The translations under genes were made by a program, and so were the position numbers. This document shows, in pieces, positions 38,341 through 57,084 of a DNA stretch of 64,000 nt (position 1 is its first letter; every line of letters starts with the position of its first letter). Under the pieces are notes generated by a model. That model saw only the letters and a program-made list of their open reading frames with translations. It was not told where the DNA came from and made no database searches. This DNA is from an uncultured Alphaproteobacteria bacterium (GTDB taxonomy: Bacteria; Pseudomonadota; Alphaproteobacteria; CAAHEQ01; UBA3637). The stretch covers positions 7,084 to 71,083 of the forward strand of contig CAKQBW010000003.1 in NCBI GenBank assembly GCA_934216505.1, in the 5' to 3' direction.

Positions 38341-38363
38341 TATTTTTTCAGAAAGGACCTTTT

Positions 38364-38933
38364 ATGACAAATACAAAAATTGATTTGTGTTCCCAAGCCT
38401 TGGTCAAACTGGGGGCAAAAAGTATTGCCTCTATGGACGAAAACACCACAGAAGCCATGGTCGCCCAACAACTTTATGAACCCACTTTGCGCCATTTGCT
38501 CAGTTCTTATCCTTGGCGTTTTGCCTTGCGTCAAGAATGTTTGGGCCGATTAGATGAAACACCCCTGACCGATTATCCCTATGCCTTTCAAATTCCCAAC
38601 GATTGCTTGCGTATTTTATCGGCGGGACAAAACACAAAAAGTAGCGGATTAATTTACCGTTTAGTGGGCCAAAAATTATATGCCAAAGTCCCTGAGGTTG
38701 TTTTAACTTATCTGAGTCGTCCTGAAGAAAATACTTTTCCGCCTTTTTTCAATCAGGCTTTAACGGATACTTTGGCGGCACAATTTTGTCTGCCTTTGAC
38801 GGAAAGTTCTGCCCGCACAGATTATATGAGTAAATGCGCCACTGAGTCTGTTTCCAAAGCCCGTTTAATAGACAGCCAACAATCTGTTCATTCTTGTTTT
38901 CAAGATTTTTCCTTAATTGAGGTACGTTCATGA
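38364..38933 (+). CDS. Putative head-tail adaptor (T7 gp11-like tail tubular protein A)
   Basis: 189 aa. The N-terminus IDLCSQALVKLGAKSIASMDENTTEA...LY...R..LLS.YPWRFA fits the adaptor pattern and gene position. Confidence 0.55.
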   Translation: MTNTKIDLCSQALVKLGAKSIASMDENTTEAMVAQQLYEPTLRHLLSSYPWRFALRQECLGRLDETPLTDYPYAFQIPNDCLRILSAGQNTKSSGLIYRLVGQKLYAKVPEVVLTYLSRPEENTFPPFFNQALTDTLAAQFCLPLTESSARTDYMSKCATESVSKARLIDSQQSVHSCFQDFSLIEVRS

Positions 38934-40855: not shown

Positions 40856-40858
40856 AAA

Positions 40859-41335
40859 ATGGAAGTCGCCTTGATTGCCACCGCCGCCACCGTTATCGGG
40901 TCGGCCTATTACACCAAAAGAAATTCAGATTTACAGGCCAAAGCCATAAAGCAATCTAATTCTTATGCTCAAGCCAGTGCCGCCAACCAAAACCGTCAAG
41001 CCCAAATCGCTTTAGCCGAACAAAAACGCAAAAACAAAAATTTGTTGGCGCAACAACAGGCAACCTATAAAGCGTCCTTAAGTGCAGGGGGCGTCAATAC
41101 CAATCATGGGTCCAGCCAAACCTATCTCAACGCTTTACAACGGGAATATGACATGGAGGACAAGTATTTGGATAAACAAGCCAAAATCTCCTCAGACGCT
41201 ATTTTGAACAGTTTAAATCGTACCAATTCATCCAACTTATTAAAATTAAATGCCCTCAACAACAGCCAACAATCTAATCTCTATACTTCCTTGGGGAATT
41301 TGGCCAATGGGGTGGGACGGACCCTGATTAAATAA
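40859..41335 (+). CDS. Small virion-associated protein (N-terminal TM, Gln/Asn-rich)
   Basis: N-terminal hydrophobic segment VALIATAATVIGSAYY, followed by low-complexity Q/N/A sequence. Confidence 0.35.
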   Translation: MEVALIATAATVIGSAYYTKRNSDLQAKAIKQSNSYAQASAANQNRQAQIALAEQKRKNKNLLAQQQATYKASLSAGGVNTNHGSSQTYLNALQREYDMEDKYLDKQAKISSDAILNSLNRTNSSNLLKLNALNNSQQSNLYTSLGNLANGVGRTLIK

Positions 41336-41349
41336 AGGAGCCTTCCCCA

Positions 41350-41607
41350 ATGATGGCCCCTAAAGAGTGGGCGGTTTTTTTGGAAAAAGCCGTCCAAAGT
41401 TATCAGACTTTTGCCAGTTCGCCCCCGCCGATGGACGCCAAAGAATTTAACGCCTATCATGGGGCCTGCAAAAGTGCCCTGATGCATATTGCTTTGTTGG
41501 AAAAATTGATTGAACTCAACCCTGAAAAACCCCCTGATTCTTTTCCTTTGGACGAATGGATTCAGACCGCACGACAGGAATTAAAAAATGAAAACGACCT
41601 TTCTTGA
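41350..41607 (+). CDS. Small phage protein in the small-terminase position
   Basis: 85 aa, overlapping the start of the large terminase gene. Its size and position match T7 gp18. No motif support. Confidence 0.35.
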   Translation: MMAPKEWAVFLEKAVQSYQTFASSPPPMDAKEFNAYHGACKSALMHIALLEKLIELNPEKPPDSFPLDEWIQTARQELKNENDLS

Positions 41608-42985
41608 ATTTGTTTGGATTTGGGATAAGATGCATCATCTAAGCTTGCCCAACCATCATAAAAAAATCGGCCGATTCTTATCACATTTGGCCCATCAAAA
41701 AGAACGTCGGTATGCTCTGTTAATGGCCTTTCGGAATTCGGGAAAATCCACTTTAATGGGATTGTTTTGTGCGTGGGTATTAAATCAAGATCCCAACTTG
41801 AAAGTCTTGATTTTATCCGCCGACACAGACTTGTCCCGCAAAATGGCCACGCACATTCAACGCATTTTAGAGCAACACCCGTGTTGTGTGGGCCTGAAAC
41901 CACCGGCCCCCAAAGAATGGGCGGGCGGGCGCTTTACCGTGCAACGCACTTGTGCCGACCGAGATCCGTCTGTGTTGGCCAAAGGATTGTTCAGCAATTT
42001 GACAGGCAGCCGGGCCGACATTATTATTTGCGATGATGTTGAGGTTCCCAAAACAGCTGACACCGCCGCAAAGCGGGCCGACATGCGTTTAAAATTAAAT
42101 GAGTTAAACTATATTTTGGCCCCCAATGGCTTGATGTTGTATGTGGGAACGCCCCATGCCAAAGAAACCATTTATGAGGTACCCGATAAATGGGAAAAAT
42201 TGATTCTTCCCATTTGGGACGATCAAGGGCGACCAGCGTGGCCTGAACGTTTTTCTATGGAAAAAATCAACCAAATTCGGACCAACACCAGTGCCGCCAA
42301 ATTTTCAAGTCAGATGTTATTAAAACCCATGGCCCCCGAAGAAAGGCGTTTAGATGAAAGTTATCTCACCATGTATGCTGAGGATTTAGATTATTACGAG
42401 GCAAACAACAGCGCCGTCTTGACTTTAGCGGGAAAAAAATTAGTCTCGGGGTCGGCTTGGTGGGACCCCGCCTTTGGGCGAGTACGAGGGGATAGAAGTG
42501 TGATTGCCTGTGTTTTTACCGATGAAGAAGGCCATTTATATGTGCATCAAATCCGCTATCTGAAAGTCCCCGATGGGACGGAAGCCACGCACTATCAATG
42601 CCAACAGGTTGCCCAGTTTTTACAGGAAAACTTTTTGCCTGCCCTCAACATTGAAACCAACGGGATTGGGCAATTTTTACCCGCTTTACTCAAGCAAGAA
42701 TTGGCCCGTCAGCGGATGGGGTGTGCGGTGATAGAAAAAAACGCCCATCAAAACAAAGTGGAACGCATTTTGGGCGCATGGGAAGCCCCGCTTTTTAACC
42801 GCCAAATCAGCATACACAAAAGCGTTTGGGACAGTCCTTTAATCCAAGAAATGCAAGACTTTAACACGCATGGCAACACCCATGATGATGGATTAGATGC
42901 CGTGGCGGGGTGTTTATTGAGTGAGCCTGTGCGCTTAAAAAAACAGCCTGATTTTTACAAAAGACGCCCCCTATGGCGTCCTTAA
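41588..42985 (+). CDS. Terminase large subunit
   Basis: Walker A-like FRNSGKST, Walker B IIICDDVE, and a C-terminal nuclease-size domain ending ...HDDGLDA. Confidence 0.7.
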   Translation: MKTTFLEFVWIWDKMHHLSLPNHHKKIGRFLSHLAHQKERRYALLMAFRNSGKSTLMGLFCAWVLNQDPNLKVLILSADTDLSRKMATHIQRILEQHPCCVGLKPPAPKEWAGGRFTVQRTCADRDPSVLAKGLFSNLTGSRADIIICDDVEVPKTADTAAKRADMRLKLNELNYILAPNGLMLYVGTPHAKETIYEVPDKWEKLILPIWDDQGRPAWPERFSMEKINQIRTNTSAAKFSSQMLLKPMAPEERRLDESYLTMYAEDLDYYEANNSAVLTLAGKKLVSGSAWWDPAFGRVRGDRSVIACVFTDEEGHLYVHQIRYLKVPDGTEATHYQCQQVAQFLQENFLPALNIETNGIGQFLPALLKQELARQRMGCAVIEKNAHQNKVERILGAWEAPLFNRQISIHKSVWDSPLIQEMQDFNTHGNTHDDGLDAVAGCLLSEPVRLKKQPDFYKRRPLWRP

Positions 42986-43001
42986 ACAAAAGGAAAATAA
43001 A

Positions 43002-43409
43002 ATGACTCAAGAAGAAATTTTTGCCAAAACTATTTTCGGCGAAGCACGGGGCGAATCATTAGCGGGCCAAGAAGCCGTCGCCAATGTCATTCTCAATCGT
43101 GTGAAGTATGCCCAACACCACCCCCATATTTGGTGGGGAAAAACAATTCAGGAAGTTTGTTTGAAACCCAAGCAATTTTCTTGTTGGAATAAAGATGATA
43201 AAAACTATCGGCTTTTATTGGAAAACTTGAATGATAATCCCCTTTATCAAATCTGTTTGCGGGTGGCCAAACGGGCGCAAGCGGGCTTAATCCCAGACAA
43301 CACCCATCACGCCACCCATTATCACGCCGTGAATTGTTCCCCCGTTTGGGCCCGCCATTTGGTTCCTTGCGCCGAAATCGGACGACATTTATTTTATGTT
43401 TTACCTTGA
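43002..43409 (+). CDS. SleB-type cell-wall hydrolase (endolysin)
   Basis: FGEARGES..GQEAVANVILNRV...FSCWN... pattern of the SleB hydrolase_2 family. Confidence 0.75.
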   Translation: MTQEEIFAKTIFGEARGESLAGQEAVANVILNRVKYAQHHPHIWWGKTIQEVCLKPKQFSCWNKDDKNYRLLLENLNDNPLYQICLRVAKRAQAGLIPDNTHHATHYHAVNCSPVWARHLVPCAEIGRHLFYVLP

Positions 43410-43423
43410 TTCAGGAGGCCGTC

Positions 43424-43735
43424 ATGCCCACACAAAATTTAACCATTGAAATTGGAAAACTTATGTCTTCCGTTCACACCTTGCAAGAATCCTTAAGCGA
43501 ATTAAAAAAAGAAGTGGATATTTGGGGGCAAAAAATTGCCTCGGTCCATGATGAACTGATTCACTTTATGGGAAATGTCCAAAACAAAAACACCTGTCAA
43601 ATTTTACATGACAAAATAAAAAATGAATTTGTTTTGCGTCAAGAAATTGCCCCGATTAAAAACTTGGTCGGGGTCATTGTTGCCGCCACAGGAACCGCTC
43701 TCGTGGTGGCTTTGTTAAACCTAATCTTAAAATAG
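43424..43735 (+). CDS. Small membrane-anchored coiled-coil protein (holin/spanin candidate)
   Basis: AGGAGG Shine-Dalgarno sequence and ATG at 43424. C-terminal TM segment LVGVIVAATGTALVVALLNLIL. Confidence 0.45.
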   Translation: MPTQNLTIEIGKLMSSVHTLQESLSELKKEVDIWGQKIASVHDELIHFMGNVQNKNTCQILHDKIKNEFVLRQEIAPIKNLVGVIVAATGTALVVALLNLILK

Positions 43736-43926: not shown

Positions 43927-43947
43927 AGGGGGAAAAACTTTCCCCCT
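43927..43947. terminator. Bidirectional hairpin terminator between the phage module and pilR
   Basis: AGGGGGA pairs with TCCCCCT around a 7-nt loop. An A-run lies 5' and a T-rich tail 3', so the hairpin sits after the stop codons of both convergent genes. Confidence 0.65.
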
Positions 43948-43955: not shown

Positions 43956-45074
43956 TTAGGCCCCCAAGCCCATGCCTTGCACCATTTGGTCTTGCATGAC
44001 GAAGGTCCCCCAGACAACCCAACCAATCACGGCTGAAATCATCAAAATCGCTATTGCATTTAAAATTTCTGCTTGCTTTGAAATCGTCCGAACAGATTCT
44101 TCCAACCATGAATTCGCCAGATTTTCCAACGCTTCAGGAAAGGTATCTAATTCAGAATAAATCCGTAAGTCCCCCACGACTTCTTCATCAGGAAAACCCA
44201 ACTTGGTGTGATACAGAGCCTCCCCCAAGTTATCCCCGTTATTGATAAACAGCAACGCCCGATTCAACCGGTATTTTAAATATGGGGTAGTTTCATCGCT
44301 GATTAAAGAACGCACCGCTTTAGACACAGGCATCCCCGCCCGCACCAAAGCCGACAATGCCAACAACCAACTGACCCCAATAAAGCCCCGATAAATGGAC
44401 CACGGGGGATACTTATCAAATGTCGCCCGCCCTGCCCCTTTCCAATAGGGAAAAGTAATCATCACGCAGAGCACGATAACGGGGATAATAGAAAACAACA
44501 AAATCGGGTGTTGATCCACAAAGATAGATAAATCCACCAAAGAAGCTGCCACGCCTTTCCATTGTAAGTTTGGCACCGCATCTACCATAGGGGGCACCAT
44601 GAATTTTGCTACCCCCCAAATCAACAAAGCCACCATACACATCAAAAACAACGGGTAAGCCACCGCCCCCCAAACCAATTGACGCATTTTATTCATGCCT
44701 TCCACCACACGTACCGTATGTTGTAAAGCCAATTCCAAGTTCGCCACATCCCCCACAGACAGCAATAATAATTCTGTGGAAGGGGCCCAACCCCGCAACG
44801 CTTCCGCAAAAGTTTGACCGTTTCGGATTTGGGTCATCCAACTGGCCACCGCCATCGCCATACTTTCGGTGGGACTTTTGCCGTCTTTTGAAGCGATCTG
44901 ATACAACCGTTCCAAAGCGTCCATCAAAGAAAATCGGTTCTTTAACAAAGACGCCAATTTCCGATACATTTCCAATCGGTCTTCCGCATGCAACCGCACC
45001 ATAAAGCGGGCATACATCAAATTCAATGTATCCATAATTCCATCGTTTAATTTTATTTCATTTTTTTTATCCAT
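43956..45074 (-). CDS. pilR: Type IVb pilus inner-membrane platform protein (GspF/PilC family, R64 PilR-like)
   Basis: About 370 aa with the GspF-like arrangement of helical domains and 3 TM segments. It directly follows the GspE-type ATPase gene. Confidence 0.7.
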   Translation of the reverse strand: MDKKNEIKLNDGIMDTLNLMYARFMVRLHAEDRLEMYRKLASLLKNRFSLMDALERLYQIASKDGKSPTESMAMAVASWMTQIRNGQTFAEALRGWAPSTELLLLSVGDVANLELALQHTVRVVEGMNKMRQLVWGAVAYPLFLMCMVALLIWGVAKFMVPPMVDAVPNLQWKGVAASLVDLSIFVDQHPILLFSIIPVIVLCVMITFPYWKGAGRATFDKYPPWSIYRGFIGVSWLLALSALVRAGMPVSKAVRSLISDETTPYLKYRLNRALLFINNGDNLGEALYHTKLGFPDEEVVGDLRIYSELDTFPEALENLANSWLEESVRTISKQAEILNAIAILMISAVIGWVVWGTFVMQDQMVQGMGLGA

Positions 45075-45091
45075 GGTCTTTTATCCTCAGG

Positions 45092-47062
45092 TTATATCAA
45101 GTTAGGTTGATTCAATAAACCACACCACCGTTCTACTTCTTCTATATCAAATTCCCCTTTTAACATGTGTTCAATGGCGGCTTCTTTCAATGTACGACCG
45201 TGCAAATCTGTAATCCAATAATTTAACGCCTTTTGGGATTCCCCCCTTAACATCAAATCCAAAAAAGTGGTATCAGGCAGAATAAATTCCGCCACCGCTG
45301 ACCGACCACTCACTCCGTGAAAATCACATTCCTCACACCCAGGACCCCGCAAATAGCATTGTTCCAAAGCAATATCCCCATAGGCTTCACGCAACCGTTG
45401 GACAGAGGGGTGATTTAAACACTCTGTTGCCTTTAAACGGCAATGCGGACACACCCGTGAAAGCAACCGTTGCGCCAACATACCCCGCATAATAGAGGGA
45501 TCCTGTAATTTAAAATCTTCCACCCCAATATCTTTAAGCCGCAGCAACACCGCCGATGCAGTATTGGCGTGAATCGTGGACCACACATTGTGTCCCGAAA
45601 GGGCCCCCCGAAAGGCCAAGTCCGCCGCTGACAAAGTCCGAATTTCCCCAATCATCAACGAATCAGGGTCCGACCGCAACGCCGCCGACAGGGCTTTCGT
45701 AAATTCACGGTCCTTGGCTTCTTCCACCCCAGCGTTTGTCACAGGCATCTGACGGGCCCCAGGAATCGGATATTCGGGCGGGTCTTCCACCGTAATCAAG
45801 TTCGTTTCATAGTTGCGTTCTTTCAACATGGCAATCATGTTGCGTTGCAAGGTGGTGGATTTGCCTGAACCTGTCGGTCCAGATACCATCACAATGCCTG
45901 TGGGTAAAGAGCGCAGGTACCGAAACTGATCAATTTCAAATTGCCCAAAGCCCAAACTTTCAAGTGCTTTGTCCCCCACCGCCGCATTATCATCGGCGTA
46001 CAGCAAACGAATCACCACATAACGTGTTCCAAAGGCGATGGGGTTAAATTGCAACCGCAACCCCAAAACAGACTTTGGCAACACCAAGCGGCCCCCTGAG
46101 CCCCGTAAAGGTGTGCGACCTAATTTTTGAGCCGCCTGATATTCATTTTGCGCATAGTTGGAATCCGAAATATCCGCTGAAGCAAAGGCCGCCCGAACAA
46201 AACTTTCGCCCCATTCTTTGTTATATTCCATTTCCGTTTGCATCAACCCATTCACACGAAACATCACTGTCGTATGGTCCGCCACCACAATATGCACATC
46301 GGACACCCGATTCATGGCGGCCCGAGAAATAACGGTGACAAAGTCCCGTTGCATACGGGTTTGCTTTTGGGATTCTTCTGTACTAATGACCTCAGACGCT
46401 GAATGCACTTGTTCGGCATAATTATAAATGGCCGATAATTCCGCCACCGATACATACTCTGCCTGCCCAATCTGCAACCGCCTTTTTTTGGCCAAGTATT
46501 CAAAGCCCAACACCCGTCCATCAAAGCGATTTTCCGATACCACAAAAAACCGCCCATTGGAAAACAAAGCCAACAATTTGCGTGTTTCATCATTGACAGG
46601 GAAAGCCCCCGTCAGGGAAGTCATACATTCATTTCCATTATCGTACAGGTCTTTTAAAAAGTGAATAGAACTGTGGTCATTGGGGTCCATCTGGGATTCA
46701 GTGGTTGTCTGAGGTTGCGTAAAAGCCGATGGGTCTTCTTCCACTGTCAGTTTTGTTTCAGGGGTAATTTCTTCGGGCACAACCGCTGGCTTTTGTTCCA
46801 CAGGTGGGGGCGTATTTTCATATTCTTTCAGGGTATCCAAAGTTTCAGATAATTTTTTTTGAGGTGCCAAAATATCACTGGCTTGGGCCGTATCCGCCTC
46901 AGGCGTTGGCGTAGGAACAGCCCCCCGCTCCTGTGCCAATTCTGCCTTCTCCTCTGATGGTAAAATGGGTGGCTGAATCGGTGGATTGACCCCGTTCAAT
47001 TCCTCTGTTTGAGAAATTGAGTCCGTTTTTTGCGTCAAACCAACCTTATTTTGCTCATCCAT
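45092..47062 (-). CDS. pilQ: Type IVb pilus assembly ATPase (GspE/PilB family, R64 PilQ-like) with a long N-terminal extension
   Basis: Walker A SGPTGSGKSTT, Asp/His box regions, and a C-terminal tetracysteine (CPHC...CEEC). The N-terminal extension of about 130 aa is Pro/Glu/Thr-rich. Confidence 0.85.
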   Translation of the reverse strand: MDEQNKVGLTQKTDSISQTEELNGVNPPIQPPILPSEEKAELAQERGAVPTPTPEADTAQASDILAPQKKLSETLDTLKEYENTPPPVEQKPAVVPEEITPETKLTVEEDPSAFTQPQTTTESQMDPNDHSSIHFLKDLYDNGNECMTSLTGAFPVNDETRKLLALFSNGRFFVVSENRFDGRVLGFEYLAKKRRLQIGQAEYVSVAELSAIYNYAEQVHSASEVISTEESQKQTRMQRDFVTVISRAAMNRVSDVHIVVADHTTVMFRVNGLMQTEMEYNKEWGESFVRAAFASADISDSNYAQNEYQAAQKLGRTPLRGSGGRLVLPKSVLGLRLQFNPIAFGTRYVVIRLLYADDNAAVGDKALESLGFGQFEIDQFRYLRSLPTGIVMVSGPTGSGKSTTLQRNMIAMLKERNYETNLITVEDPPEYPIPGARQMPVTNAGVEEAKDREFTKALSAALRSDPDSLMIGEIRTLSAADLAFRGALSGHNVWSTIHANTASAVLLRLKDIGVEDFKLQDPSIMRGMLAQRLLSRVCPHCRLKATECLNHPSVQRLREAYGDIALEQCYLRGPGCEECDFHGVSGRSAVAEFILPDTTFLDLMLRGESQKALNYWITDLHGRTLKEAAIEHMLKGEFDIEEVERWCGLLNQPNLI

Positions 47063-47075
47063 TTTCCCGTCCGTT

Positions 47076-47987
47076 TTATTCCTCAGTAATAAACTTGATC
47101 ACATACTCCGCATTATCACGCAAAATAACCACACTGTCTGGGGTAATGCCTGTCACCACTTCCCCTGACAAGTTATCCCCAATACGCACCGTTGAAATCA
47201 CATTATCCGTCAAGTTCTTTACCTTGGCCACCAAATGTCCCCGTGTCCCTTTAACATTCAACAAACTGTATTGGTCATGTTGCGCAATCGGGGCCACATC
47301 TTCTTCAGGAAGAGGCGGGACAAGAGGATTATTTTTGTTGGCTTCTGCTTCGGCTTGCGCCTGTTCTAACTGTTTGCGCAAAGCCTCATTTTGGGCCTTT
47401 TGGTTTTGTAAAGCCTCAGATTCAAGACGAGCTTTATCGGCTTCCTGACGCACTTTTTCGGCTTCCTGCCACCATTGAATACGGGTCCGCACCAACTCTT
47501 CCCGTTTGGCAATTTCATCTAAACGATCTTTGCGGTATTGCGCCCGTGCATTTTCCAATGCATTCGTTGCTTCTTGTTTTTTCAACTGCAACGCCAAAAA
47601 TGCATTGTCCCGTTCCAATTCGGCCATTTCTTGGAACACATCTGTGGTCAAACGCCCCAACAATTGTTCGCTGGGCGCATCATGAATGGAAACAGATTCA
47701 CCCATCGGCTGCGGGCCCGTCATTGTCGTTTCTGAAATGCCTGGGATAGCCGTAAATTCCAAATCCCCCAAAGAAGAACGAGGTGAAAAATCAACCGGCT
47801 TTTTATCCGCCAAGCCCAAATCATTTAAATCCGTTAAAGAATTTAAATCATCTTCAGGGGCTTTTTGTTCGTCCGTTAAGTTGGATTTTGAGCCTAAAGC
47901 CTCGTCCATTTGAACTTCTTGCGCCAAAGCAGGAAGAGCCAAGAAAGAGACCGTAAAAAGTGTTTGAAATAAAATTTTATTTTGCAT
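47076..47987 (-). CDS. pilP: PilP-like pilus biogenesis protein (signal peptide, coiled coil, C-terminal beta domain)
   Basis: Signal ...LPALAQE, then a long Glu/Ala/Gln coiled coil. The C-terminus is L.NVKGTRG.LVAKV.......TVRIGD.LSGEVVTGITPDSVVI. I chose the ATG at 47987, which has an AGGGAAG Shine-Dalgarno sequence. Confidence 0.55.
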   Translation of the reverse strand: MQNKILFQTLFTVSFLALPALAQEVQMDEALGSKSNLTDEQKAPEDDLNSLTDLNDLGLADKKPVDFSPRSSLGDLEFTAIPGISETTMTGPQPMGESVSIHDAPSEQLLGRLTTDVFQEMAELERDNAFLALQLKKQEATNALENARAQYRKDRLDEIAKREELVRTRIQWWQEAEKVRQEADKARLESEALQNQKAQNEALRKQLEQAQAEAEANKNNPLVPPLPEEDVAPIAQHDQYSLLNVKGTRGHLVAKVKNLTDNVISTVRIGDNLSGEVVTGITPDSVVILRDNAEYVIKFITEE

Positions 47988-49323
47988 AGATTCTTCCCTC
48001 ATATTTCCATTTGTTAGTCGCTTCGCCAGACGGCGTATATTCCAGTTTTAATAATTCTAAACCAGAAAACTTTTTAAAAAAGTCCAACCATACTTTGGGA
48101 AAATAAGGCGAGACTATTGTAAATGAATAATAAGTATAGGCCTTTTGATTCGCCGGTCTGGACCCATCGGGCCGATTAGGGGGATCATACAGCGTTTGCC
48201 GTGAGTATTGGATATTACTTTCCAAACCTGTGGCTTTTTGAATTTCCTTTAAATCTTCCCCGATTAAATCCGCCGAAAGTGTGGGTTGAGAAGGCACCAA
48301 AGGAATCTTGGTAAAGGGCATATTGCCTGTGGCACTCGTCCCTGATGCATCAATGTCAATATTAAAATTCATCAACTGATATTGGCCAATCCCAAATTTA
48401 ATCCATGGCAACCGCCCCACTTTTTCATCGGCCAATCGCCATGAAGTGGAAATCCCCTTAGGGGTACAGGTAATCGTTCCCATGGACCACCCTGGGAACA
48501 AAATCGCCCGCACCTGATAGGTATCATACCAACATTGATTCATAAACACCGCCATATCGGGCACTTTTTCCCAAGGCTTAGGCTTTTCTGGTTCAGGACG
48601 GACAGGCGCCAAAACTTGAGGTCGTTCAATTTCTGGACGGGTAAAACCTGAAGTAAAAATATCCTTCCACACCCCCACCAACAAATAAATAACATAGACC
48701 ACCGCCGCCAAAATCAATAAGGCGATTACCAACAAAAATTTGGTGCGACGAACGGCATTTAACTCCTTTAATCGGACACGGCGCACATTTTGAATCAACT
48801 TGACCAAATCTTGTTGTTCTGTTCCCGTGATATTCCATTCTTTGGGAACAATTTTTAAATCCCAATCAGGCACCGCCATCATGGCCGCATAAGCCCGTTG
48901 CGCTTCGGCTTCGTTGGTAAAAACCACATCTTCTTCGGCCAAAATTAAATCGTTTCTGATGGCAACCAACCACCACCCTGCCTCTATTTTAAAGACAGCA
49001 CACACAGAACTGCGATTGGACAAAGCCGACGCCACCGAGGCCGCCAAAGACGGCATGCCTTCTTTATGCCCCCACTCCGTCCGACCAATACCATATTGTG
49101 GCGTTGTAGCGGGACGCAAACAATAAATATCGGCCCCTAATTCACTTTCGGCCGCCTCACGAATCTCCATGATAGGGTCGTCCAAATTCTGCAAAGGTTG
49201 CCACACCAACCCCACTGCATACTTTTGTCCCCCAACAGAAACAACCCCCACCGTGGGGGCTTTGATTTTCGCCCCCGCTTGGGTTGTTTCCAGTTCATCT
49301 ATCAGATTCGTTTTATGCTCCAT
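47977..49323 (-). CDS. pilO: PilO-like (R64 type) pilus biogenesis protein, single TM
   Basis: 448 aa with a central TM segment (FLLVIALLILAAVVYVIYLLV). It sits between the secretin gene and pilP, as in R64/PAPI-1-type clusters. Confidence 0.55.
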   Translation of the reverse strand: MEHKTNLIDELETTQAGAKIKAPTVGVVSVGGQKYAVGLVWQPLQNLDDPIMEIREAAESELGADIYCLRPATTPQYGIGRTEWGHKEGMPSLAASVASALSNRSSVCAVFKIEAGWWLVAIRNDLILAEEDVVFTNEAEAQRAYAAMMAVPDWDLKIVPKEWNITGTEQQDLVKLIQNVRRVRLKELNAVRRTKFLLVIALLILAAVVYVIYLLVGVWKDIFTSGFTRPEIERPQVLAPVRPEPEKPKPWEKVPDMAVFMNQCWYDTYQVRAILFPGWSMGTITCTPKGISTSWRLADEKVGRLPWIKFGIGQYQLMNFNIDIDASGTSATGNMPFTKIPLVPSQPTLSADLIGEDLKEIQKATGLESNIQYSRQTLYDPPNRPDGSRPANQKAYTYYSFTIVSPYFPKVWLDFFKKFSGLELLKLEYTPSGEATNKWKYEGRIYAK

Positions 49324-49335
49324 ACAACTTTCCCT

Positions 49336-50985
49336 TTATATGTTCCGCATTAAAGCCTCAGGCGACAAAGGAGATTGCAAAACCTCAGGTGTCATCGTAA
49401 TCACCAACACATTGCGACTTGTTGCGTCAATGGCACTGCCCCCCAACAGGCCCATCTTCGCCCGGCCAATCCCCGACGTATTGGTGGATTCGCTTAAATC
49501 TTCAAAGCCACTCAGCACCAAAGTTTGGCCCGAACGCATCGCAATTTCTTGGACAAAGCCACGCATCTTCATGGTCGGTAATTGTAGTTTTGTTGTTTCT
49601 GTTTCCGCATCAGTGGAAGAACTACTGCTTGTTCCCGTTTCTGTCCCCGTCTCTGTGTTCTCAGAATTGCTACTGCCTGCGGAACTGGACACAATATTTT
49701 GTGTCTCCATATCCACCAAATCTGTAATGGACAGGTTAAACAAGACAATCAACCGTCCTTGATCCAAAATACGGGGCAAAATTTCCATCGTAAAACCATA
49801 GTTCAACGTATCCACCGAATAATCCGTATCCGTTGTTCTGTCTTCCCCTGACCCCGAAGAACTCACCGTGATTTCTTTCAAGTAGTTTCTAGAAGTTGAA
49901 ATTTGCACAGGCGCCACTTTATTGTTCAAAGTTGTAACCGATGAACTGGTCAAAAGGGCCGTTTTACCTTGTGTAGAAAGGGCTTGGATAACCGCTTTGG
50001 ATTTTTGGAACTTTTTGGGTTTCAACAAAGTCATCGCCAAACTGCCCGTTCCGCTGGTGCCGCCCTCAGCAATCTTGGCCGCCCCTCCAAGTGTTAAATC
50101 CTGTACCCAACTGGAATTAAACGCCGCCGCAATATCCAACCCATAGTTATCAGAATTGTTCAAAGTGACCTGATAAATACGGACAGTAATCGCCACTTGA
50201 CGGGACAATTTTTCGTTCCAATTCGCCACATAGCCCGCTACTTTACGAATAATATAAGGGCTGGCCGTTACGGTAATCGTTCCCGCCACTTTGGAAAAAG
50301 ACAATTTGCCTTTATCGCCCACGACTTGTTTGACCCCTTCTTCAATGCCTTCCCAAACTTTTAAATCCGTACTGACCGACAAGTTAGAGTTTGCGTTCCC
50401 ACCGCCCCCATTGTCGCCCATGGTCGCCCCCGTCATAGACGCCGACAAAGTCGTATCTGTGGGCAAGGCATAAATGGTAAAGACCCGTGTTTCTTGGGTA
50501 AAGAAAGTAATAATCCCATCCTTATACCGCCAATATACATTAAACCGATTGGACAGGTAATTCAATAAACCACTCAACGCCCCTGAATACTTGACGGGGA
50601 CGGTATTTTCGGGCACAGCATTTTCCGCCTTTAAATCATCCAAACGAATGGTGATTCCCGTCATATCAGAAATTTCCTGTAAGATATTGGGTAAAGTCGT
50701 TTGGTCCGAAATAGCCACCGTAATGCCATCTTCTTTTTCCACCCAACTGGGCAAAGGATCCCCTTCAGCAATCTTGGTGCTTTGCGTCCCTAACCAAATA
50801 TCGTTTTGCATACGCACTGTATCCACGGGTTCAGGTAAATCAGGAATTTGAGAGGCTTCCAGATATTCTTCTGTTCGGGCCAAAGTTGTTTCAATACGTT
50901 TATCTACCTCCACAACATGCTCATTACATGCCGCCAAGGTAAAACACCCCATCAACAAGGCCAATGTGAATTTTTTAATGTGCAT
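49336..50985 (-). CDS. pilN: Secretin lipoprotein (R64 PilN family)
   Basis: Lipobox LAAC (MHIKKFTLALLMGCFTLAAC). The C-terminal secretin domain reads ...TLNNKVAPVQIS...GFTMEILPRI...GQTLVLSGFED...LVITMTPEV. I chose the ATG at 50985. Confidence 0.8.
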   Translation of the reverse strand: MHIKKFTLALLMGCFTLAACNEHVVEVDKRIETTLARTEEYLEASQIPDLPEPVDTVRMQNDIWLGTQSTKIAEGDPLPSWVEKEDGITVAISDQTTLPNILQEISDMTGITIRLDDLKAENAVPENTVPVKYSGALSGLLNYLSNRFNVYWRYKDGIITFFTQETRVFTIYALPTDTTLSASMTGATMGDNGGGGNANSNLSVSTDLKVWEGIEEGVKQVVGDKGKLSFSKVAGTITVTASPYIIRKVAGYVANWNEKLSRQVAITVRIYQVTLNNSDNYGLDIAAAFNSSWVQDLTLGGAAKIAEGGTSGTGSLAMTLLKPKKFQKSKAVIQALSTQGKTALLTSSSVTTLNNKVAPVQISTSRNYLKEITVSSSGSGEDRTTDTDYSVDTLNYGFTMEILPRILDQGRLIVLFNLSITDLVDMETQNIVSSSAGSSNSENTETGTETGTSSSSSTDAETETTKLQLPTMKMRGFVQEIAMRSGQTLVLSGFEDLSESTNTSGIGRAKMGLLGGSAIDATSRNVLVITMTPEVLQSPLSPEALMRNI

Positions 50986-51643
50986 TCTCGTCCTCCTGTA
51001 CGCTGATGACCAAAACTTTATTCCCCTTATAAAAAGTCCCAATAGGCGCAGGAACAGCCCGTGCAAAAGTCCGAATAATCGCACTGGATACTTCGGTAAA
51101 GGTTCCACGAAAAACAACCCCCGCTTCCAAAGTATAATCCCTGTCCAACTTCCAAATCAAAGTCCAACCCGACACTTCTGACCATTGAGCCAAAAGGGAC
51201 TTTAATGTTTCCCCCCGGGCGGCTTCCCAATCATGTACCGCATCCCCATAGGCCAACTTTTCATTCAAATCATGGGTGACCCACAAATGGCCATCTTTTC
51301 CCTTTAATTGAGTGGCAATACGGCGGTTGCGTTCGTTGGCTTTCGCCTGAACACTCATCTGACGAGTTACCTTAATCGTCTTATTATTTTGCCCCTCATT
51401 TGGCACCGCATATCCCAAAGGTTGATAGGACGTCTTTACCACCGCAGGTTCCACTTGAATCTGACCACTGACACAATCTGTGCAATCTGCCCCCACAAAC
51501 AAATCGTCCGAAGAATAAAGCATATCGCATTGAGCATTACCCGCCGAACAATCTACATATTGATTGGCTTGGGCCTGTCCCTGTGTCGGTATCAAAGCCA
51601 ACGCCCCCACTAACAAAACAACTTTTTTCATATTTTTGCTCAT
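50975..51643 (-). CDS. pilL: PilL/TcpQ-domain pilus protein
   Basis: Signal peptide, then the C-terminal TcpQ-like block TLKSLLAQWSEVSGWTLIW.LDRDYTLEAGVVF.GTF..........F. Its last 11 nt overlap the secretin gene's start. Confidence 0.6.
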   Translation of the reverse strand: MSKNMKKVVLLVGALALIPTQGQAQANQYVDCSAGNAQCDMLYSSDDLFVGADCTDCVSGQIQVEPAVVKTSYQPLGYAVPNEGQNNKTIKVTRQMSVQAKANERNRRIATQLKGKDGHLWVTHDLNEKLAYGDAVHDWEAARGETLKSLLAQWSEVSGWTLIWKLDRDYTLEAGVVFRGTFTEVSSAIIRTFARAVPAPIGTFYKGNKVLVISVQEDENAH

Positions 51644-51702
51644 GTTTTACTCCCTGTTTAGTTCAAACATACACTGTTTTTTTTGAGAATACAAGTATTT
51701 TT

Positions 51703-52560
51703 TTACCAGCGCAATGTTTTTTGTTTTTTCCTTTCATGTTTTACCATTTCATTGGGGATAATTTCCGTTTGCGTATATCCCAACAAAACCGTATTCACCT
51801 CACGCTCTGTCTTAAAGATGCGAATTTGATGACGCGACACCCCTTGTTCCAAAATAATTTGAATCAACAAGCCCACCCGCTTACTTTGTAAAGGCCAATC
51901 TTCCGAACTTGCCCGAATATCCAAACGATAGCGCGGGTCCTTTAACACCTTTAAAGCAAACGCTTTCACCCACTTTAACGAGTGCGCCGAAAAAGACGCT
52001 TGATTCGGGTAAAAACGAATGCGGACCTCACGGGGAATCGCCCCTTTGATTTCTGAGCCCGATTGCATCGCCTGCAAAACTTCATCTGCTTTTGTGGATT
52101 GTTGAATATAGGGGGTATAGGGGGGGATATCCTCTTCCTCAATCACCATCGGTTGAGGCAACTCGGGCAACGGCGTCAGGAGGGCCTTTTGTATATTCAC
52201 GATATTTTTAGGAGTCGGCGTAAAAACCTTGGTTGTCGTTGAAGGGGACGCCTTCGGGGTCGGGGGTGCCATCTGATCCACCGTTAAAGCATTCTTACCA
52301 AAAATTTCGGCGACAATATCCACTCCTTCGGGAATCTTTTGGACAGGCGTTTCCTGTTTTTGTAGAGGAATTTCAACCGACATCGGGTCCGCAGGTAAAG
52401 TAAAAGTTGGTGTTAAAAAATCGTCCTGAAGCGTCGCCACCGAAAGTGCATTCACAGCGGTCGGTCCTTTTTCATCGGATGCCAAATCCACCGCTTTCCC
52501 AGTCAATGGAAAAAGCAAAACTGACAAAAATACCCAACTGATTTGTCCCCAAACGGTCAT
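51703..52560 (-). CDS. Secreted hypothetical protein, first gene of the pilus cluster
   Basis: Signal peptide (ATG at 52560) and a Pro-rich middle. The C-terminal approx. 90 aa vaguely resemble an OmpA/MotB-like fold. I could not verify this. Confidence 0.4.
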   Translation of the reverse strand: MTVWGQISWVFLSVLLFPLTGKAVDLASDEKGPTAVNALSVATLQDDFLTPTFTLPADPMSVEIPLQKQETPVQKIPEGVDIVAEIFGKNALTVDQMAPPTPKASPSTTTKVFTPTPKNIVNIQKALLTPLPELPQPMVIEEEDIPPYTPYIQQSTKADEVLQAMQSGSEIKGAIPREVRIRFYPNQASFSAHSLKWVKAFALKVLKDPRYRLDIRASSEDWPLQSKRVGLLIQIILEQGVSRHQIRIFKTEREVNTVLLGYTQTEIIPNEMVKHERKKQKTLRW

Positions 52561-52676
52561 TTTTCCCCTAAAAATTTGTTTAAACACTCCTACTCTAAAA
52601 TATAAATTATTGATTGTCAAGTATAAAATGAAAGGAAAATTTGCCTTTTTTTAAATTTTAAGGTAAAATAAAAAAT

Positions 52677-53969
52677 ATGACAAGTCTGTTTGAAGTTTTA
52701 AATCATAAGCCTTTGGCTGAGAAAATGCGCCCACAACAATTAGAACAAGTCGTGGGACAAGATCTTTTATTAGGTGAAAAAGGCCCCTTAAATCGCATGA
52801 TCCAAAACCAAAATTTATCCAGTTTTATTTTATGGGGACCACCAGGGTGTGGCAAAACAACAATTGCCCGCATTTTGGCCGAACAAACAAAACTCCATTT
52901 TGTACAACTGTCCGCTGTTTTTTCGGGGGTTGCCGATTTAAGAAAAGTCTTTGATGAAGCCAAACAACGCCAACTGTCGGGGCAAGGGACTTTATTGTTC
53001 GTTGATGAAATTCACCGTTTTAATCGGGCGCAACAGGATGGCTTTTTACCCTATGTAGAAGATGGCACAATTATCTTGGTCGGCGCTACCACCGAAAACC
53101 CCAGTTTTGAACTCAACGGCGCTTTGCTTTCCCGCTGTAAGGTTTTTGTGCTGAATCGGTTGGATGAAAAAGCCTTAATGACTTTAGCCAAAAGGGCCGA
53201 AGAAATTATGGAAAAACCGCTACCTTTGGACGAAACAGGAAAAAAATACCTATGCACCTTAGCCGATGGCGATGGACGATATTTTATCAATTTAATTGAG
53301 GCGGTGTATCAATATGCGCGTCCCAACGAAATTTTAGACCAAAAAGAACTGGAAATCTTGTTGCAAAAAAGGCTACCTGATTATGATAAAGCCGGAGAAG
53401 GACACTATAATTTAATCTCCGCTTTACATAAATCTTTGCGGGGATCAGACCCTGATGCAGGGTTGTACTGGCTGGCCCGCATGGTGGTCAGTGGAGAGGA
53501 CATGAAATACATCCTGCGTCGCCTCACCCGATTTGCCAGCGAAGATGTGGGCTTGGCGGACCCTCAGGCTTTGGTTCAAGCCATCAATGCGTGGCACAGT
53601 TATGAACGATTGGGGTCGCCTGAAGGCGATTTAGCCGTGGCAGGCTTGGTCGTTTATTTGGCCACAGCCCCCAAATCTATAGGGATTTATCGGGCATGGA
53701 ATCAAGCCGTTCAGGTGGCCCATGAAACAGCGGCGTTGATGCCCCCCAAACATATTTTAAATGCCCCCACAAAATTGATGAATGAGTTGGGCTATAGTCA
53801 AGGCTATCAATACGACCCTGACCTGCCTGACAGTTTTTCGGGTCAAGAATACTTCCCCGATGAAATTGGCCACAGGACTTTTTATGTCCCCGCCGAACGG
53901 GGCTTTGAACGAGAGATTCAAAAACGCTTGGTCTATTGGAACAAGTTAAGAAAGAAAAAACATTCTTGA
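52677..53969 (+). CDS. rarA: Replication-associated recombination protein A (MgsA/RarA AAA+ ATPase)
   Basis: LAEKMRPQ.L..VVGQ, Walker A GPPGCGKTT, VDEIHRFN, and a C-terminal MgsA domain. Confidence 0.92.
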   Translation: MTSLFEVLNHKPLAEKMRPQQLEQVVGQDLLLGEKGPLNRMIQNQNLSSFILWGPPGCGKTTIARILAEQTKLHFVQLSAVFSGVADLRKVFDEAKQRQLSGQGTLLFVDEIHRFNRAQQDGFLPYVEDGTIILVGATTENPSFELNGALLSRCKVFVLNRLDEKALMTLAKRAEEIMEKPLPLDETGKKYLCTLADGDGRYFINLIEAVYQYARPNEILDQKELEILLQKRLPDYDKAGEGHYNLISALHKSLRGSDPDAGLYWLARMVVSGEDMKYILRRLTRFASEDVGLADPQALVQAINAWHSYERLGSPEGDLAVAGLVVYLATAPKSIGIYRAWNQAVQVAHETAALMPPKHILNAPTKLMNELGYSQGYQYDPDLPDSFSGQEYFPDEIGHRTFYVPAERGFEREIQKRLVYWNKLRKKKHS

Positions 53970-54131: not shown

Positions 54132-54893
54132 TTATTTTGTGGTCTTTTTCAAAAACTCTATAGCATCTTCTGCAGCAACTGTTTTTGATTCAACTGCCAA
54201 AATGGCTTTTGGACAATATTTTTGAACCAACTTCATAAGCTTTTTAAAATCAATTGTTCCATCGTCAAAACCATTGTGCTCATCATTATTTGTGCGGGTT
54301 AATTTTCCATGATTATTGTGTAAATGCATATAACCAATACGATTGTTTAAAGTTTTTACCCAATCATAGACAGACATATCTGAATTGCCATGGGCATGTC
54401 CAACATCTAAACAGGCCTTTAATCTTTTATCATGGACTGCATCAATTTCTTGTATTATGACAGAACTATCCAATTCCAACATATTCTCAATCATCATTGT
54501 AATAGAATCATCTTTATCTGCAAAGAATTCTTGCCAGAATGTGGTTGCTCTTTTCACCCAGTTAGGAATATGTGATGTAAATGGCACATATCCATCATGC
54601 ACAACAATACTATCGCAATTCAATTCTTTGGCTATTTTATAAGCATAGTTAAACCACTTCATAGTTTCTTTTCTAAGGCTTGGCAGTGCAGAACCTAAAT
54701 TTAAATCCCAAAAAGGCGCATGAAGTGATAAACATTTAATATTCTTTGTTTGTTCTTTTTGATATGCAATATGTTTTTTTACATTTTTCAATAAAGGATC
54801 TGCGAATAATTGAAGTTCCATTCCAATCTTTTGACGTTTGACAATCTCAAAAGCTGGTTCAAACTTACCATGATCACATAATCTTATGTCCAT
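54132..54893 (-). CDS. Sugar-phosphate isomerase/epimerase (xylose-isomerase-like TIM barrel)
   Basis: Metal-ligand pattern ...LHAPF..., IVVHDG..., MIENM..., LDVGHA..., HLHNN.... The ATG at 54893 has a GGAGGT Shine-Dalgarno sequence. Confidence 0.65.
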   Translation of the reverse strand: MDIRLCDHGKFEPAFEIVKRQKIGMELQLFADPLLKNVKKHIAYQKEQTKNIKCLSLHAPFWDLNLGSALPSLRKETMKWFNYAYKIAKELNCDSIVVHDGYVPFTSHIPNWVKRATTFWQEFFADKDDSITMMIENMLELDSSVIIQEIDAVHDKRLKACLDVGHAHGNSDMSVYDWVKTLNNRIGYMHLHNNHGKLTRTNNDEHNGFDDGTIDFKKLMKLVQKYCPKAILAVESKTVAAEDAIEFLKKTTK

Positions 54894-55092
54894 CGTTATT
54901 ACCTCCACTTTTGTGTTTTTATTATCGTACAGAATCATTTTGTAAAACGCAATGATTTTCTTGTTTTAACTAAAAAAGTTCGAATGTCGGTAAGGCCTTT
55001 AAACAGACGAAAAAATATGAAACATAATAAAATCAAGCGCTTACTGTGTTATTGGTTCGATTGTTGGACAAAGTATGCCTGTTTTTCCTGCG

Positions 55093-55179
55093 CAACAATT
55101 GAACTGGCTTAACGCATGGAAAATAAAAGAAAAAGTCGCCATTTCTGACGACTTGTCCAATTTGGTGGAGCGTTGTGCA
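55093..55179. repeat. 87-bp direct repeat, copy B
   Basis: Same sequence as 54025-54111, with substitutions clustered in the hairpin loop and one GGCGG-to-GGTGG change. Confidence 0.85.
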
Positions 55180-55513
55180 ATTGCCAAAACATCAGAACCC
55201 TTCGGAATGTAATGCTAAAGCTTCATTTTGTTCTGATTTCCTTAAAATTTCCTATATTTCAGGTGTTAGGGCTTTACGAACTGGAAGGAGTTTGGGCTTG
55301 CCTTGAGCGGAACACATTTTCAACCTTGATTGCAAAGTTGGGGAAGTGGTACGTTTTTGCTCTTCTTTGTACTCTTTTAGCGCCTTTTCTAATCCCAGCT
55401 TAGTAAAACTTAAGCCGAGTTTTCCATTAGCATTTTTTATCATTTTTGTACAAGATCCTTCCACTCCTGTTTCTGGATTAATAACAGTTTTACCTTCGTA
55501 GCTACCTATTAAT

Positions 55514-56662
55514 TTACGAACTGTTTTTTTTTAAAATCTCTATTAATTCCTCAAAATTACCATATCCGAATTTAGTTAAAGGAAGCGGATAAACTAGAAA
55601 AACATCAAAATCTGAAAATTCTCTCATCCCTTTATCCATCTCGGAAAGAGCTTCTTTCTGAAAAGGTTTATCTGTATTTATTATAACCGTACGCAAAGAC
55701 AATAGTGATGAATAATGTTCCCTTAAGATTGGCATCACAATGTCTTGAGCATAACAAGCACCTATGATAACTGCTGTTTTCCCATTTTTAGAATTAAGTC
55801 GTTTGCCTTTTTCAAAAATAACAATTTTTCCGTTTAAAATTTGCTTTTCAATCTGATAATTACTCTTTATACCATCGAATTTAAAATGAAATGAAGGATC
55901 TGTTCCTTTTTGTAAAGTCAAATTTAAAGATGAAGCAAGATAGGAGTGCTGGTATGTTTTGTCTGGAACTATTTTTTTGACATCTATTGGAACATTAAAT
56001 TTTTTTTGTAAAAGATTAACAATGATTTGAGTACCCCAAAAAGTGAGATGAAGATCTTCTTTATAAAAAAGCCTTTTCTTTTCAGAAACTTCTATAAATT
56101 CTTTTTTGGGATAAATCACTTCTATATTATGATAATCTGATAGTAACTTGGCTATTTCTTCCCCATTATCCAAATACGGTTTGGCTTTGTAATATTTTTC
56201 CCAATATTTTTGATATAAAACTTCTCGTTCGGGTATCAACATCAAATAAATCGAGACATTTTTTCTTTTAAGTTTATCAGCAAATCTTTTTAATATTTCC
56301 ACATCTTTCTCTATCTTTTCTCTCTGTTTTTTAATAGATGGACGATTGACTGTATTCCACTTTTCAAACATCCAACCATCATCACCAATAAAAACTTTTT
56401 CATTTTCTATTCGACCATTAACTTTATAAAGCATCTGGGAGCGAGCATCTATCAATTCGTTTCTGCCCCAAAATCGATCTCCCAACCAAGATTCAAATTC
56501 TTTTCCAAAATCCGTGTTTAATTTATCTTTTTTCTTTAATTCCGGAAATTCTTCCAAAGTTCTATTCTCTTGCTCTGTTATTTCAGAGGTATTCATATGA
56601 AATAAGGGGATTATCAATACTGTCAAAACTAATATTGAAAAAACTATTTTATAATATTTCAT
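55514..56662 (-). CDS. AlgJ/AlgX/DltD-like SGNH-fold O-acyltransferase partner protein
   Basis: N-terminal TM anchor. The motif EDLHLTFWG sits in the position of the DTHW(T) motif. It is adjacent to an MBOAT gene. Confidence 0.55.
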   Translation of the reverse strand: MKYYKIVFSILVLTVLIIPLFHMNTSEITEQENRTLEEFPELKKKDKLNTDFGKEFESWLGDRFWGRNELIDARSQMLYKVNGRIENEKVFIGDDGWMFEKWNTVNRPSIKKQREKIEKDVEILKRFADKLKRKNVSIYLMLIPEREVLYQKYWEKYYKAKPYLDNGEEIAKLLSDYHNIEVIYPKKEFIEVSEKKRLFYKEDLHLTFWGTQIIVNLLQKKFNVPIDVKKIVPDKTYQHSYLASSLNLTLQKGTDPSFHFKFDGIKSNYQIEKQILNGKIVIFEKGKRLNSKNGKTAVIIGACYAQDIVMPILREHYSSLLSLRTVIINTDKPFQKEALSEMDKGMREFSDFDVFLVYPLPLTKFGYGNFEELIEILKKNSS

Positions 56663-56663
56663 T

Positions 56664-57075
56664 TTAATCCTTTACTATTCTTTTGGCTTTTCCTTGAATT
56701 TCAGGTAGGGTTCCTTTTGAGATAAAATTTAATTTCGGTGTCACACTAATATAAGCTTTCATCGTAGTAATTAACTCTTTTTGTAAAATAAGCCAATGTT
56801 GAAATTCCCGTTGTTCCGCTTGAAGCATTAAATCGGGCAATTTTATCCTGTGATACAGCCAAAAAACCATAAGGAAAATTTTGACGTAAATCCCCCTTGA
56901 CAGTGAAGGGTAATTTACCAGCTTCAGATAAATCTTCAATATTATTTGGTAATTTTCCCAAATAAGCACTCGTTCTATTTGCTCTTTCCAATTGCTGATT
57001 AAAAAGTGTTAATTGCAACTCTTTCAATTGATTTTGAGGTATACATTCTATTTTTTTACCGTAATATTCTGTCAT
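56664..57075 (-). pseudogene. Internally deleted adenylate-forming enzyme (PaaK / F390-synthetase-like)
   Basis: The first approx. 100 aa run up to the SSGTTG AMP-binding motif (frame 56746-57075). The reading frame then shifts to a C-terminal end ...LPEIQGKAKRIVKD (frame 56664-). About 300 central residues are missing. Confidence 0.6.
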
Positions 57076-57084
57076 TTCTTCTCT

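Follow-up and report, generated by a model that had tools for sequence, protein, structure and literature searches.

The core operon of a type IVb pilus machine, with its probable modular pilins amplified at other loci, in an uncultured gut alphaproteobacterium

A stretch of 64,000 nucleotides (hereafter, the window) from an uncultured Alphaproteobacteria bacterium (GenBank assembly GCA_934216505.1, contig CAKQBW010000003.1, positions 7,084 to 71,083, forward strand) was analyzed for the seven-gene pilus operon that it carries on its minus strand. This operon had been described, from the letters of the window, as an R64/PAPI-1-type type IVb pilus assembly operon without a pilin, prepilin peptidase, PilT/PilV or PilM gene (first-pass annotation), and it had been proposed that the fibre genes were either encoded elsewhere or lost, perhaps with repurposing of the machine as a secretin/ATPase conduit. 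The seven genes very probably constitute the envelope-spanning core of the only type IVb pilus machine of this genome, the pilins, the peptidase and the PilT-like ATPase of which would be encoded at other loci. The puzzle of a fibre-less machine thus dissolves into an ordinary split system, and a single window gives no ground to infer loss or repurposing. What is new here lies mostly outside the window: a lineage-wide, amplified family of modular pilins with Arg at position +1, an OmpA-like accessory gene and possible promoter switches.

The host is an uncultured gut/rumen alphaproteobacterium with a reduced genome of about 1 Mb, represented by a metagenome-assembled genome (MAG) of 1,037,405 bp in 37 contigs, with an estimated completeness of 93.85% and an estimated contamination of 0.01% (G000 in the following; its contigs are denoted C1, C2 and so on). 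Related loci were obtained by scanning a collection with one genome per species, which gave 76 loci, all of them from gut MAGs (human, ruminant and chicken) named uncultured “Alphaproteobacteria bacterium”, with CAG:495 and Candidatus Scatocola among them; these may be members of the GTDB order RF32. A literature search found no publication on pili in this lineage.

The operon comprises seven co-directional open reading frames (ORFs) between 43956 and 52620 (probable start 52560), and the intergenic gaps range from -26 to +59 nt. The second gene, g2 (50975..51643), lies in the position of pilL and encodes a secretin partner of the TcpQ/BfpG type, which scored 61.7 bits for TcpQ PF10671 against a cut-off of 27 in the hidden Markov model (HMM) scan; its counterparts in the more distant relatives have lipobox-like N-termini. 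The product of g3 (49336..50988; ORF 49336-51117, likely start 50988) is a lipoprotein secretin of the PilN/BfpB type, with a Secretin match (PF00263, 43.1 bits in the same scan) and a lipobox at its probable true N-terminus, and the solved structure closest to it by sequence was BfpB (9u5s, E 7.5e-49). In type IVb pilus (T4bP) systems, the lipoprotein secretin is bound by BfpG/TcpQ (PMC12531336). A PilO protein of the PilO2/BfpC family, with a cytoplasmic actin-like domain, is encoded by g4 (47977..49323); it matched PAP_PilO PF06864 with 89.4 bits across residues 36-447, and its closest solved structure by sequence was BfpC (3vhj, E 2.2e-5), the structure of the PilO family having been described previously (PMC3984277). 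The PilP-like periplasmic protein of g5 (47076..48002), the position of which is kept in the relatives, has a signal peptide and a long charged linker ahead of the last 100 residues, where a weak PilP match (TIGR03021) is located. Finally, g6 (45092..47062) encodes an extension ATPase of the PilQ/BfpD/GspE type (T2SSE PF00437, 216.8 bits) with a Walker A motif at residue 395, a CPHC...CEEC tetracysteine motif and an N-terminal low-complexity extension of about 220 aa, and g7 (43956..45074) a platform protein of the PilR/BfpE/GspF type with two T2SSF domains (PF00482, 86.5 bits). The ORFs and the HMM matches agreed with the gene order that had been annotated, with only PilP weakly matched. This order, together with the domain matches, the terminator downstream and the rarA gene upstream (see below), indicated that the original description of the operon was accurate.

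The first gene, g1 (51703..52560; ORF 51703-52620), had been left as an unknown secreted protein. No Pfam or NCBIfam match was obtained for it, and its sequence consists of a signal peptide, a disordered Pro-rich half and a C-terminal domain at about residues 155-265. Nevertheless, an AlphaFold2 (AF2) model built on a 30-sequence alignment gave pLDDT values of 90-97 over this domain, and Foldseek matched it to MotB, OprF, Pal and OmpA-like proteins with a probability of 1.00, E-values down to 2.7e-6 and TMt values of at most 0.66. About 65 related loci have this gene at the head of the operon. The modelled OmpA/MotB/Pal-like fold suggests that g1 encodes a secreted accessory protein that probably serves as the peptidoglycan anchor of the machine.

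Type IV filament systems share five ancestral parts, namely one or more pilins with a class III signal, a prepilin peptidase, an extension ATPase, a platform and a secretin (PMC10191384). All five are present in this genome, and three of them (ATPase, platform and secretin) are encoded in the window, along with two accessory parts of T4bP systems, the lipoprotein secretin with its TcpQ partner and the PilO2/BfpC protein. The only Secretin match in the genome was g3, the only T2SSF matches were the two domains of g7, and phmmer searches found no paralogue of either protein in G000. As both of these single genes belong to the operon, it is the sole type IV filament machine of the genome.

The window itself, in agreement with the earlier description, contains no prepilin gene: whole-genome searches with the N_methyl and PilS profiles and a pilin-motif regular expression returned nothing within it. 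Likewise, neither a peptidase nor a PilT gene was found in its 64 kb, and the pilin, peptidase and PilT-like genes are instead located on C1, C2, C4, C5 and other contigs. A strict G-F/M-T-L-I-E expression applied to all ORFs detected no pilin, and the family surfaced through the N_methyl HMM and a relaxed motif. The number of pilin-like genes was 23 by N_methyl, 28 by motif and 32 by a profile of the first 70 residues, so that the total was taken as at least 28 genes; the 28 motif-defined ORFs account for approximately 2.9% of the assembly. Their signal consists of a leader of 6-9 residues followed by G|R-S-M-V-E-M-L and a hydrophobic helix, and G|R-S-x-x-E is common to all 28. Among 11 paralogues, the residues Gly(-1), Arg(+1) and Glu(+5) did not vary, and GRSMVE was likewise invariant in 43 database homologues.

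These pilins fall into three size classes, of 120-165, 280-410 and 480-1650 aa. The shortest are the candidates for the major pilin; two of them form a convergent pair on C19, and others lie in tandem where C4 ends. The AF2 model of one of them showed a 55-residue helix and a small beta domain (pLDDT 79), and its ten best Foldseek matches were all type IV pilins. The long pilins, with 10-38 cysteines, are about 90% identical over the first 40 mature residues and 25-35% identical in the C-terminal two thirds, and the diversity of the family is that of many full-length paralogues. In the protein scan, the pilins of this genome gave no match to a globular domain of Pfam; one pilin carries a von Willebrand factor A (vWA) domain (29.1 bits). 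A pilin-like ORF of 1700 aa (C3:71243-76345) is located just 160 bp past the window, on the same contig. Its signal is G|RSMLEM, and it contains ephrin-receptor-like Cys-rich repeats; a truncated paralogue of this ORF is found at the end of C7.

A single A24 prepilin peptidase is encoded at C1:115670-116368 (PF01478, 53.5 bits), with D110, a GCGDVK motif and no Cys-rich methyltransferase domain. The genome also encodes one PilT-like ATPase of 408 aa, the second ATPase of this kind after g6, with PilT/PilU as its best NCBIfam match and PilT and PilU as its best Protein Data Bank matches (about 1e-20). Hence, of the two fates that had been considered for the fibre genes, location elsewhere was borne out, with at least 28 pilin genes, the peptidase and the PilT-like ATPase on other contigs; the proposals of loss and of repurposing as a conduit are contradicted by these genes and by the pilins and PilT-like ATPase that relatives have in the operon.

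The order g1 to g7 was kept throughout the related loci (more than 70). The closer relatives, with an ATPase 65-85% identical to g6, resemble the window in that g7 is the last gene of their operon. The more distant ones (ATPase 57-64% identical, about 35 loci) continue after g7, without a change of strand, with an ORF of 194 aa, one to four pilin genes and the gene of a PilT-like ATPase. The pilins encoded there carry the same G|RSMVEML signal as those of G000 and scored 55.5 bits for PilS and 40.7 bits for Bundlin. Because these operon-linked pilins clearly belong to the PilS/Bundlin kind, the assignment to type IVb is settled, and because the relatives carry pilins and a PilT-like ATPase directly after the same seven genes, the window is best read as holding part of a split operon. 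This is largely the outcome that the first-pass annotation had named as a possible refutation of its own interpretation. The 194-aa ORF between the platform and the pilins (L057, L067, L080 and L101, at about 12.7-13.3 kb) has one transmembrane helix, a Bundlin-like domain (24-29 bits) and no class III signal, and it may encode a protein in the position of PilM. A search of G000 gave no clear homologue of this ORF (best match, E 0.013).

The distribution of the components in the lineage was also analyzed. The gene pilO was found in 17 of 20 congeners and in all four of the other genera sampled, while homologues of the peptidase were present in each of the 31 genomes of the family (16 genera) and those of the PilT-like ATPase in 28 of them. 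These results indicated that the operon is a vertically inherited core locus, syntenic across the genus and the family and not borne by an integrative and conjugative element (ICE). The expectation that such a cluster would travel on a conjugative element therefore did not hold; in this respect the operon resembles the chromosomal Tfp7 (PMC3984277). Furthermore, the N-terminal pilin module gave between 6 and 76 matches in every one of the 24 family genomes searched (0.7-2 Mb), versus 0-3 in other families of the class. The lineage keeps one type IVb machine and spends about 3% of a 1-Mb genome on an unannotated family of pilins with an unusual Arg(+1) signal, many of them fused to Cys-rich adhesive modules. 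Since R64, the bundle-forming pilus (BFP) and Tfp7 keep their pilins in the operon (PMC3984277), parsimony suggests that this end of the operon was lost to other loci in the genus of the window. We therefore infer that the operon was complete in the ancestor, that its pilin/PilT end was relocated in this genus, where the pilin family was also amplified, and that the operon lacks pilins for this reason.

Comparison with known systems helped to define the type of the machine. Its gene order (TcpQ or PilL, PilN lipoprotein secretin, PilO, PilP, ATPase and platform) is shared with the pil clusters of R64, PAPI-1 and SPI-7 and with Tfp7, and the R64 likeness extends to the PilS-family pilins that follow the platform gene in the relatives of this operon. 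Tfp7 of Burkholderia pseudomallei, a chromosomal variant of R64, includes TcpQ, has its pilT apart and lacks a peptidase gene at the locus (PMC3984277); the locus studied here is likewise chromosomal and TcpQ-bearing, with pilT elsewhere and the peptidase outside. It differs from R64 in its OmpA-like first gene, in its dispersed pilins (at least 28 copies) with Arg at +1, and in its retraction-type ATPase, which is a true PilT/BfpF-like protein, unlike the PilT protein of R64; no PilT-like retraction ATPase is among the R64 genes listed in PMC3984277. In addition, PilM (PF07419) had no match at E≤1 anywhere in the genome, confirming and extending the reported absence of this gene, and PilN and PilP remained below the curated cut-offs. 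The setting also diverges, since R64 is conjugative, whereas here rarA and a phage-like module border the operon, and VirB8-11 are encoded on another contig. The clustering of the pilin with the biogenesis genes, a feature of T4bP systems, is absent from this locus and present in the more distant relatives.

The bfp operon of enteropathogenic Escherichia coli has the order G (TcpQ-like), B (lipoprotein secretin), C (PilO-like), U, D (ATPase), E (platform) and F (retraction ATPase), and this core mirrors g2-g7 plus the PilT-like gene of the relatives. The closest solved structures, BfpB and BfpC, and the Bundlin matches of the relatives' pilins point in the same direction. Nevertheless, the bfp operon is plasmid-borne and includes one major and three minor pilins as well as the peptidase, all of which are unlinked here, and the pilin family of this lineage is huge and modular, unlike that of BFP. 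The R64/PAPI-1 label thus stands as regards the type IVb family and the R64-like order, but the BFP components (BfpB, BfpC and BfpG/TcpQ) match equally well. Sequence comparison places the operon as a type IVb machine of the R64/BFP kind and not as an R64 variant in the strict sense, considering the sub-cut-off PilN and PilP, the missing PilM match, the PilT-type ATPase and the lack of a conjugative element.

A further parallel is found in the type IV pili of Streptococcus sanguinis, the modular minor pilins of which, PilB (vWA) and PilC (lectin), are incorporated into the pili (PMC8179133; PMC10191384). Here too a pilin N-terminal module is joined to adhesive domains (vWA and ephrin-receptor-like repeats), but in a diderm T4bP system and in dozens of paralogues instead of two, some of them of 1700 aa. 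The following working scheme is proposed. The peptidase would cleave after Gly and leave an unmethylated Arg, and short pilins of 120-140 aa would polymerize on the platform, powered by the extension ATPase. The fibre would leave through the TcpQ-assisted lipoprotein secretin, with the PilO/BfpC protein and the PilP-like protein bridging the periplasm and the OmpA-like g1 product tethering the complex to the wall, and the PilT-like ATPase would retract it. The long and giant Cys-rich modular pilins would be incorporated into the fibre and displayed as adhesins, as are PilB and PilC of S. sanguinis.

Several observations weigh against this interpretation, all of which is derived from sequence. 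The product of g3 reached 261.1 bits for the PilN family TIGR02520 (cut-off 287.65) and that of g5 only 21.2 bits for TIGR03021 (E 4.6e-4, residues 198-293, cut-off 34.65), even though these were the best-scoring families for the two proteins. The pilins of G000 barely reached the cut-off for PilS PF08805 (22.4 bits against 22), and none of the Foldseek matches of the short pilin had an E-value below 0.04. To our knowledge, Arg at +1 is absent from characterized pilins, so that cleavage at G|R is an assumption. Pilin-like genes lie at several contig ends of this MAG, which is 94% complete and in 37 contigs, and the pilin counts are therefore lower bounds and the linkage incomplete. Additionally, the polarity of the splitting follows from parsimony with R64 and BFP as outgroups and not from a rooted tree.

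Three other explanations were weighed. The operon might be a secretion or display device resembling a type II secretion system (T2SS), with a short pseudopilus only and with the large pilin-like proteins as cargo or anchored surface proteins, for which the class III signal would serve just to enter and leave the membrane. Many members of the family are far above pilin size (330-1700 aa), the best NCBIfam score of g6 was that of GspE (232.7 bits), and effector secretion by T4bP systems is known, for instance of TcpF and CofJ (PMC10191384). Nevertheless, TcpQ, PilO PF06864 and the lipoprotein secretin are markers of T4bP and not of T2SS, short members of major-pilin size exist in several copies, the PilT-like ATPase is conserved and the operon-linked pilins of the relatives belong to the PilS/Bundlin family. 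The pili of S. sanguinis, moreover, have been shown to contain modular pilins (PMC8179133), and we consider a T2SS-like device unlikely. A pilin-less secretin/ATPase conduit or a decaying remnant, which the 64-kb window without pilin, peptidase or PilT gene would by itself suggest, is extremely improbable: the seven ORFs are intact, with their order conserved in more than 70 related loci, the pilins, the peptidase and the PilT-like ATPase are present and conserved genome-wide, and the retention of 2.9% of a reduced 1-Mb genome as pilin genes argues for their use.

An R64-like thin pilus that stabilizes mating pairs for a VirB-type type IV secretion system (T4SS), with the variable pilins selecting recipients in the manner of PilV, seems less probable still than the T2SS-like device. 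Variants of R64 PilV do select recipients, and C12 encodes VirB8, VirB9, a giant VirB10 and VirB11, with a long pilin gene 1.2 kb from VirB11. The statement that no T4SS genes lie near the operon and that its flank is the core gene rarA was correct, with the qualification that a VirB8-B11 cluster does exist on this other contig. The operon is unlinked to it, no relaxase was seen nearby, and a core locus inherited vertically over 16 genera does not fit a conjugative function; moreover, R64 systems lack a PilT-like retraction ATPase (PMC3984277). The C12 cluster (10756-20505) consists of VirB11, a VirB10/TrbI protein of 2147 aa with seven beta-flower repeats, VirB9 (CagX) and VirB8 in a row. The six ORFs scanned beyond VirB8 gave no family match, and no search was aimed at relaxase or VirB4.

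A shared upstream cassette was found ahead of eight long-pilin genes, the gene of a 1606-aa secreted protein with teneurin-type EGF repeats and a pair of genes for small membrane proteins. It contains a 149-bp element with two perfect 16-bp palindromes 133 bp apart, the outer flanks of which extend to inverted repeats of 19-23 bp. Ten complete copies exist, with arms of 19-23 bp and an inner segment of 113-115 bp, ending about 70 bp ahead of the start codon, and the palindrome site occurs 25 times in the genome and not once in the window. The cores are almost invariant, while the 117-bp segments between the palindromes are just 75-88% identical. In the present orientation the sequence reads ATTCCA-17-TATAGT, with ATTCCA at the -35 position; the inner segment ends in TTGAC at its gene-distal end, and its inversion would yield TTGACA-N17-TATAGT with the core as spacer. 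One pilin locus (C5:7959) has the left flank, a single core and the right flank, that is, a precise one-core excision product. Furthermore, a Resolvase-family gene of 210 aa (104 bits) starts 58 bp after one of the copies, and a recombinase gene of this family was divergent from a pilin gene, at a distance of 265-376 nt, at 8 of 35 recombinase loci examined, the eight being in six congeners. The chance expectation was roughly estimated as 0.3 adjacencies, and the loci may be orthologous and thus not independent.

Systems that invert promoters or pilin genes include Mpi of Bacteroides fragilis and Hin of Salmonella, which are serine recombinases, as well as Piv of Moraxella and the Rci shufflon of R64. 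The present element resembles those of the Mpi/Hin type in its short inverted repeats, in the small segment upstream of surface-protein genes, in its many copies and in the adjacent resolvase/invertase gene; it differs in that the segment would carry just the -35 box, with the core as spacer and the -10 box outside. Invertible-promoter systems have been reviewed (PMC11868660; PMC11602134). It is conceivable, although on balance we hold it somewhat doubtful, that this operon, itself constitutively encoded, serves as the hub of a phase-variable adhesin display in which a serine recombinase would invert the element and switch individual adhesins on. The many pilins of each family genome, all served by this single machine, would then point to a lifestyle of variable attachment. 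If this were true, a combinatorial surface variation of the Bacteroides style would be built on pilus subunits, and there would be a handle on how abundant uncultured gut bacteria attach to hosts, particles and other microbes.

Against such switching, all ten copies and the single metagenome contig found have one and the same orientation, and a pattern for the ON junction matched only OFF-state distal junctions in G000 and nothing in 15 congeners. The OFF pattern was species-specific, the core being at background level in G016, G019, G012, G001 and G022, and 19 pilin upstream regions of three congeners gave no convincing pair of inverted repeats with a length of at least 14 bp. The other four Resolvase genes of G000 do not adjoin copies of the element. 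Since a TGn extended -10 is present, basal transcription would be possible in both orientations. The palindrome can equally be an operator, of which parS is a reminder: a second palindrome family, on C2, was considered as a switch and rejected, as it corresponds to parS beside parAB. Three canonical parS palindromes lie there (C2:38814-39416) beside parA, parB and rsmG, and they mark the origin-proximal region.

One of the five Resolvase-family genes, encoding a small serine recombinase, is located in the window (16412-17032, minus strand) beside tRNA-Asp and a low-GC stretch (29-37% GC, about 17-20 kb), with no convincing inverted repeats nearby. As regards the pilin genes themselves, the leaders in G016, the closest relative sampled (L132-L142), appear to be about 35-40 aa long and to contain a conserved palindromic insert resembling RPE or MITE sequences, sometimes duplicated; two pilin ORFs of G000 have an in-frame upstream stretch similar to this insert.

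As previously annotated, the operon stops at a terminator 8 nt past the pilR stop codon, which was defined here as a bidirectional intrinsic terminator (43927..43947) with a 9-bp stem, five GC pairs and T tracts on both strands, common to the operon and to a convergent phage-like gene cluster. At the other end, the 116-bp divergent region shared with rarA (52677-53969, divergent from the operon; MgsA_C, 206.9 bits) contains two candidate sigma-70 promoters on the minus strand (52592..52683), TTGACA-17-TAGAGT and TTGTCA-17-TAAAAT. Each matched the consensus at 10 of 12 positions in a consensus scan, and they would serve as the promoters of the operon.

The cluster convergent with the operon (34100-43735, plus strand) is a podovirus-like structural module that encodes a portal/adaptor, a major head protein, tail tubular protein A, a nozzle/tubular B protein, a large terminase and a SleB-type cell-wall hydrolase. 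This set of genes was found, with order and place unchanged, in ten other related loci of the collection, and the module is a candidate for a domesticated phage-like particle, similar to a gene transfer agent (GTA), rather than a recent prophage. Its Hydrolase_2 gene, just beyond the terminator, was considered as a wall hydrolase of the pilus machine, like R64 PilT or BfpH, and rejected; since the conserved part of the phage-like module ends with this gene, it was left unassigned to the pilus. On the side of rarA, a low-GC block (54132-59945, 30-34% GC) adjoins tRNA-Ser and encodes a TIM barrel protein similar to AP endonuclease 2/xylose isomerase, an AlgX-like SGNH protein, an MBOAT acyltransferase and an HNH endonuclease; it is possibly an island for the O-acylation of a surface polymer.

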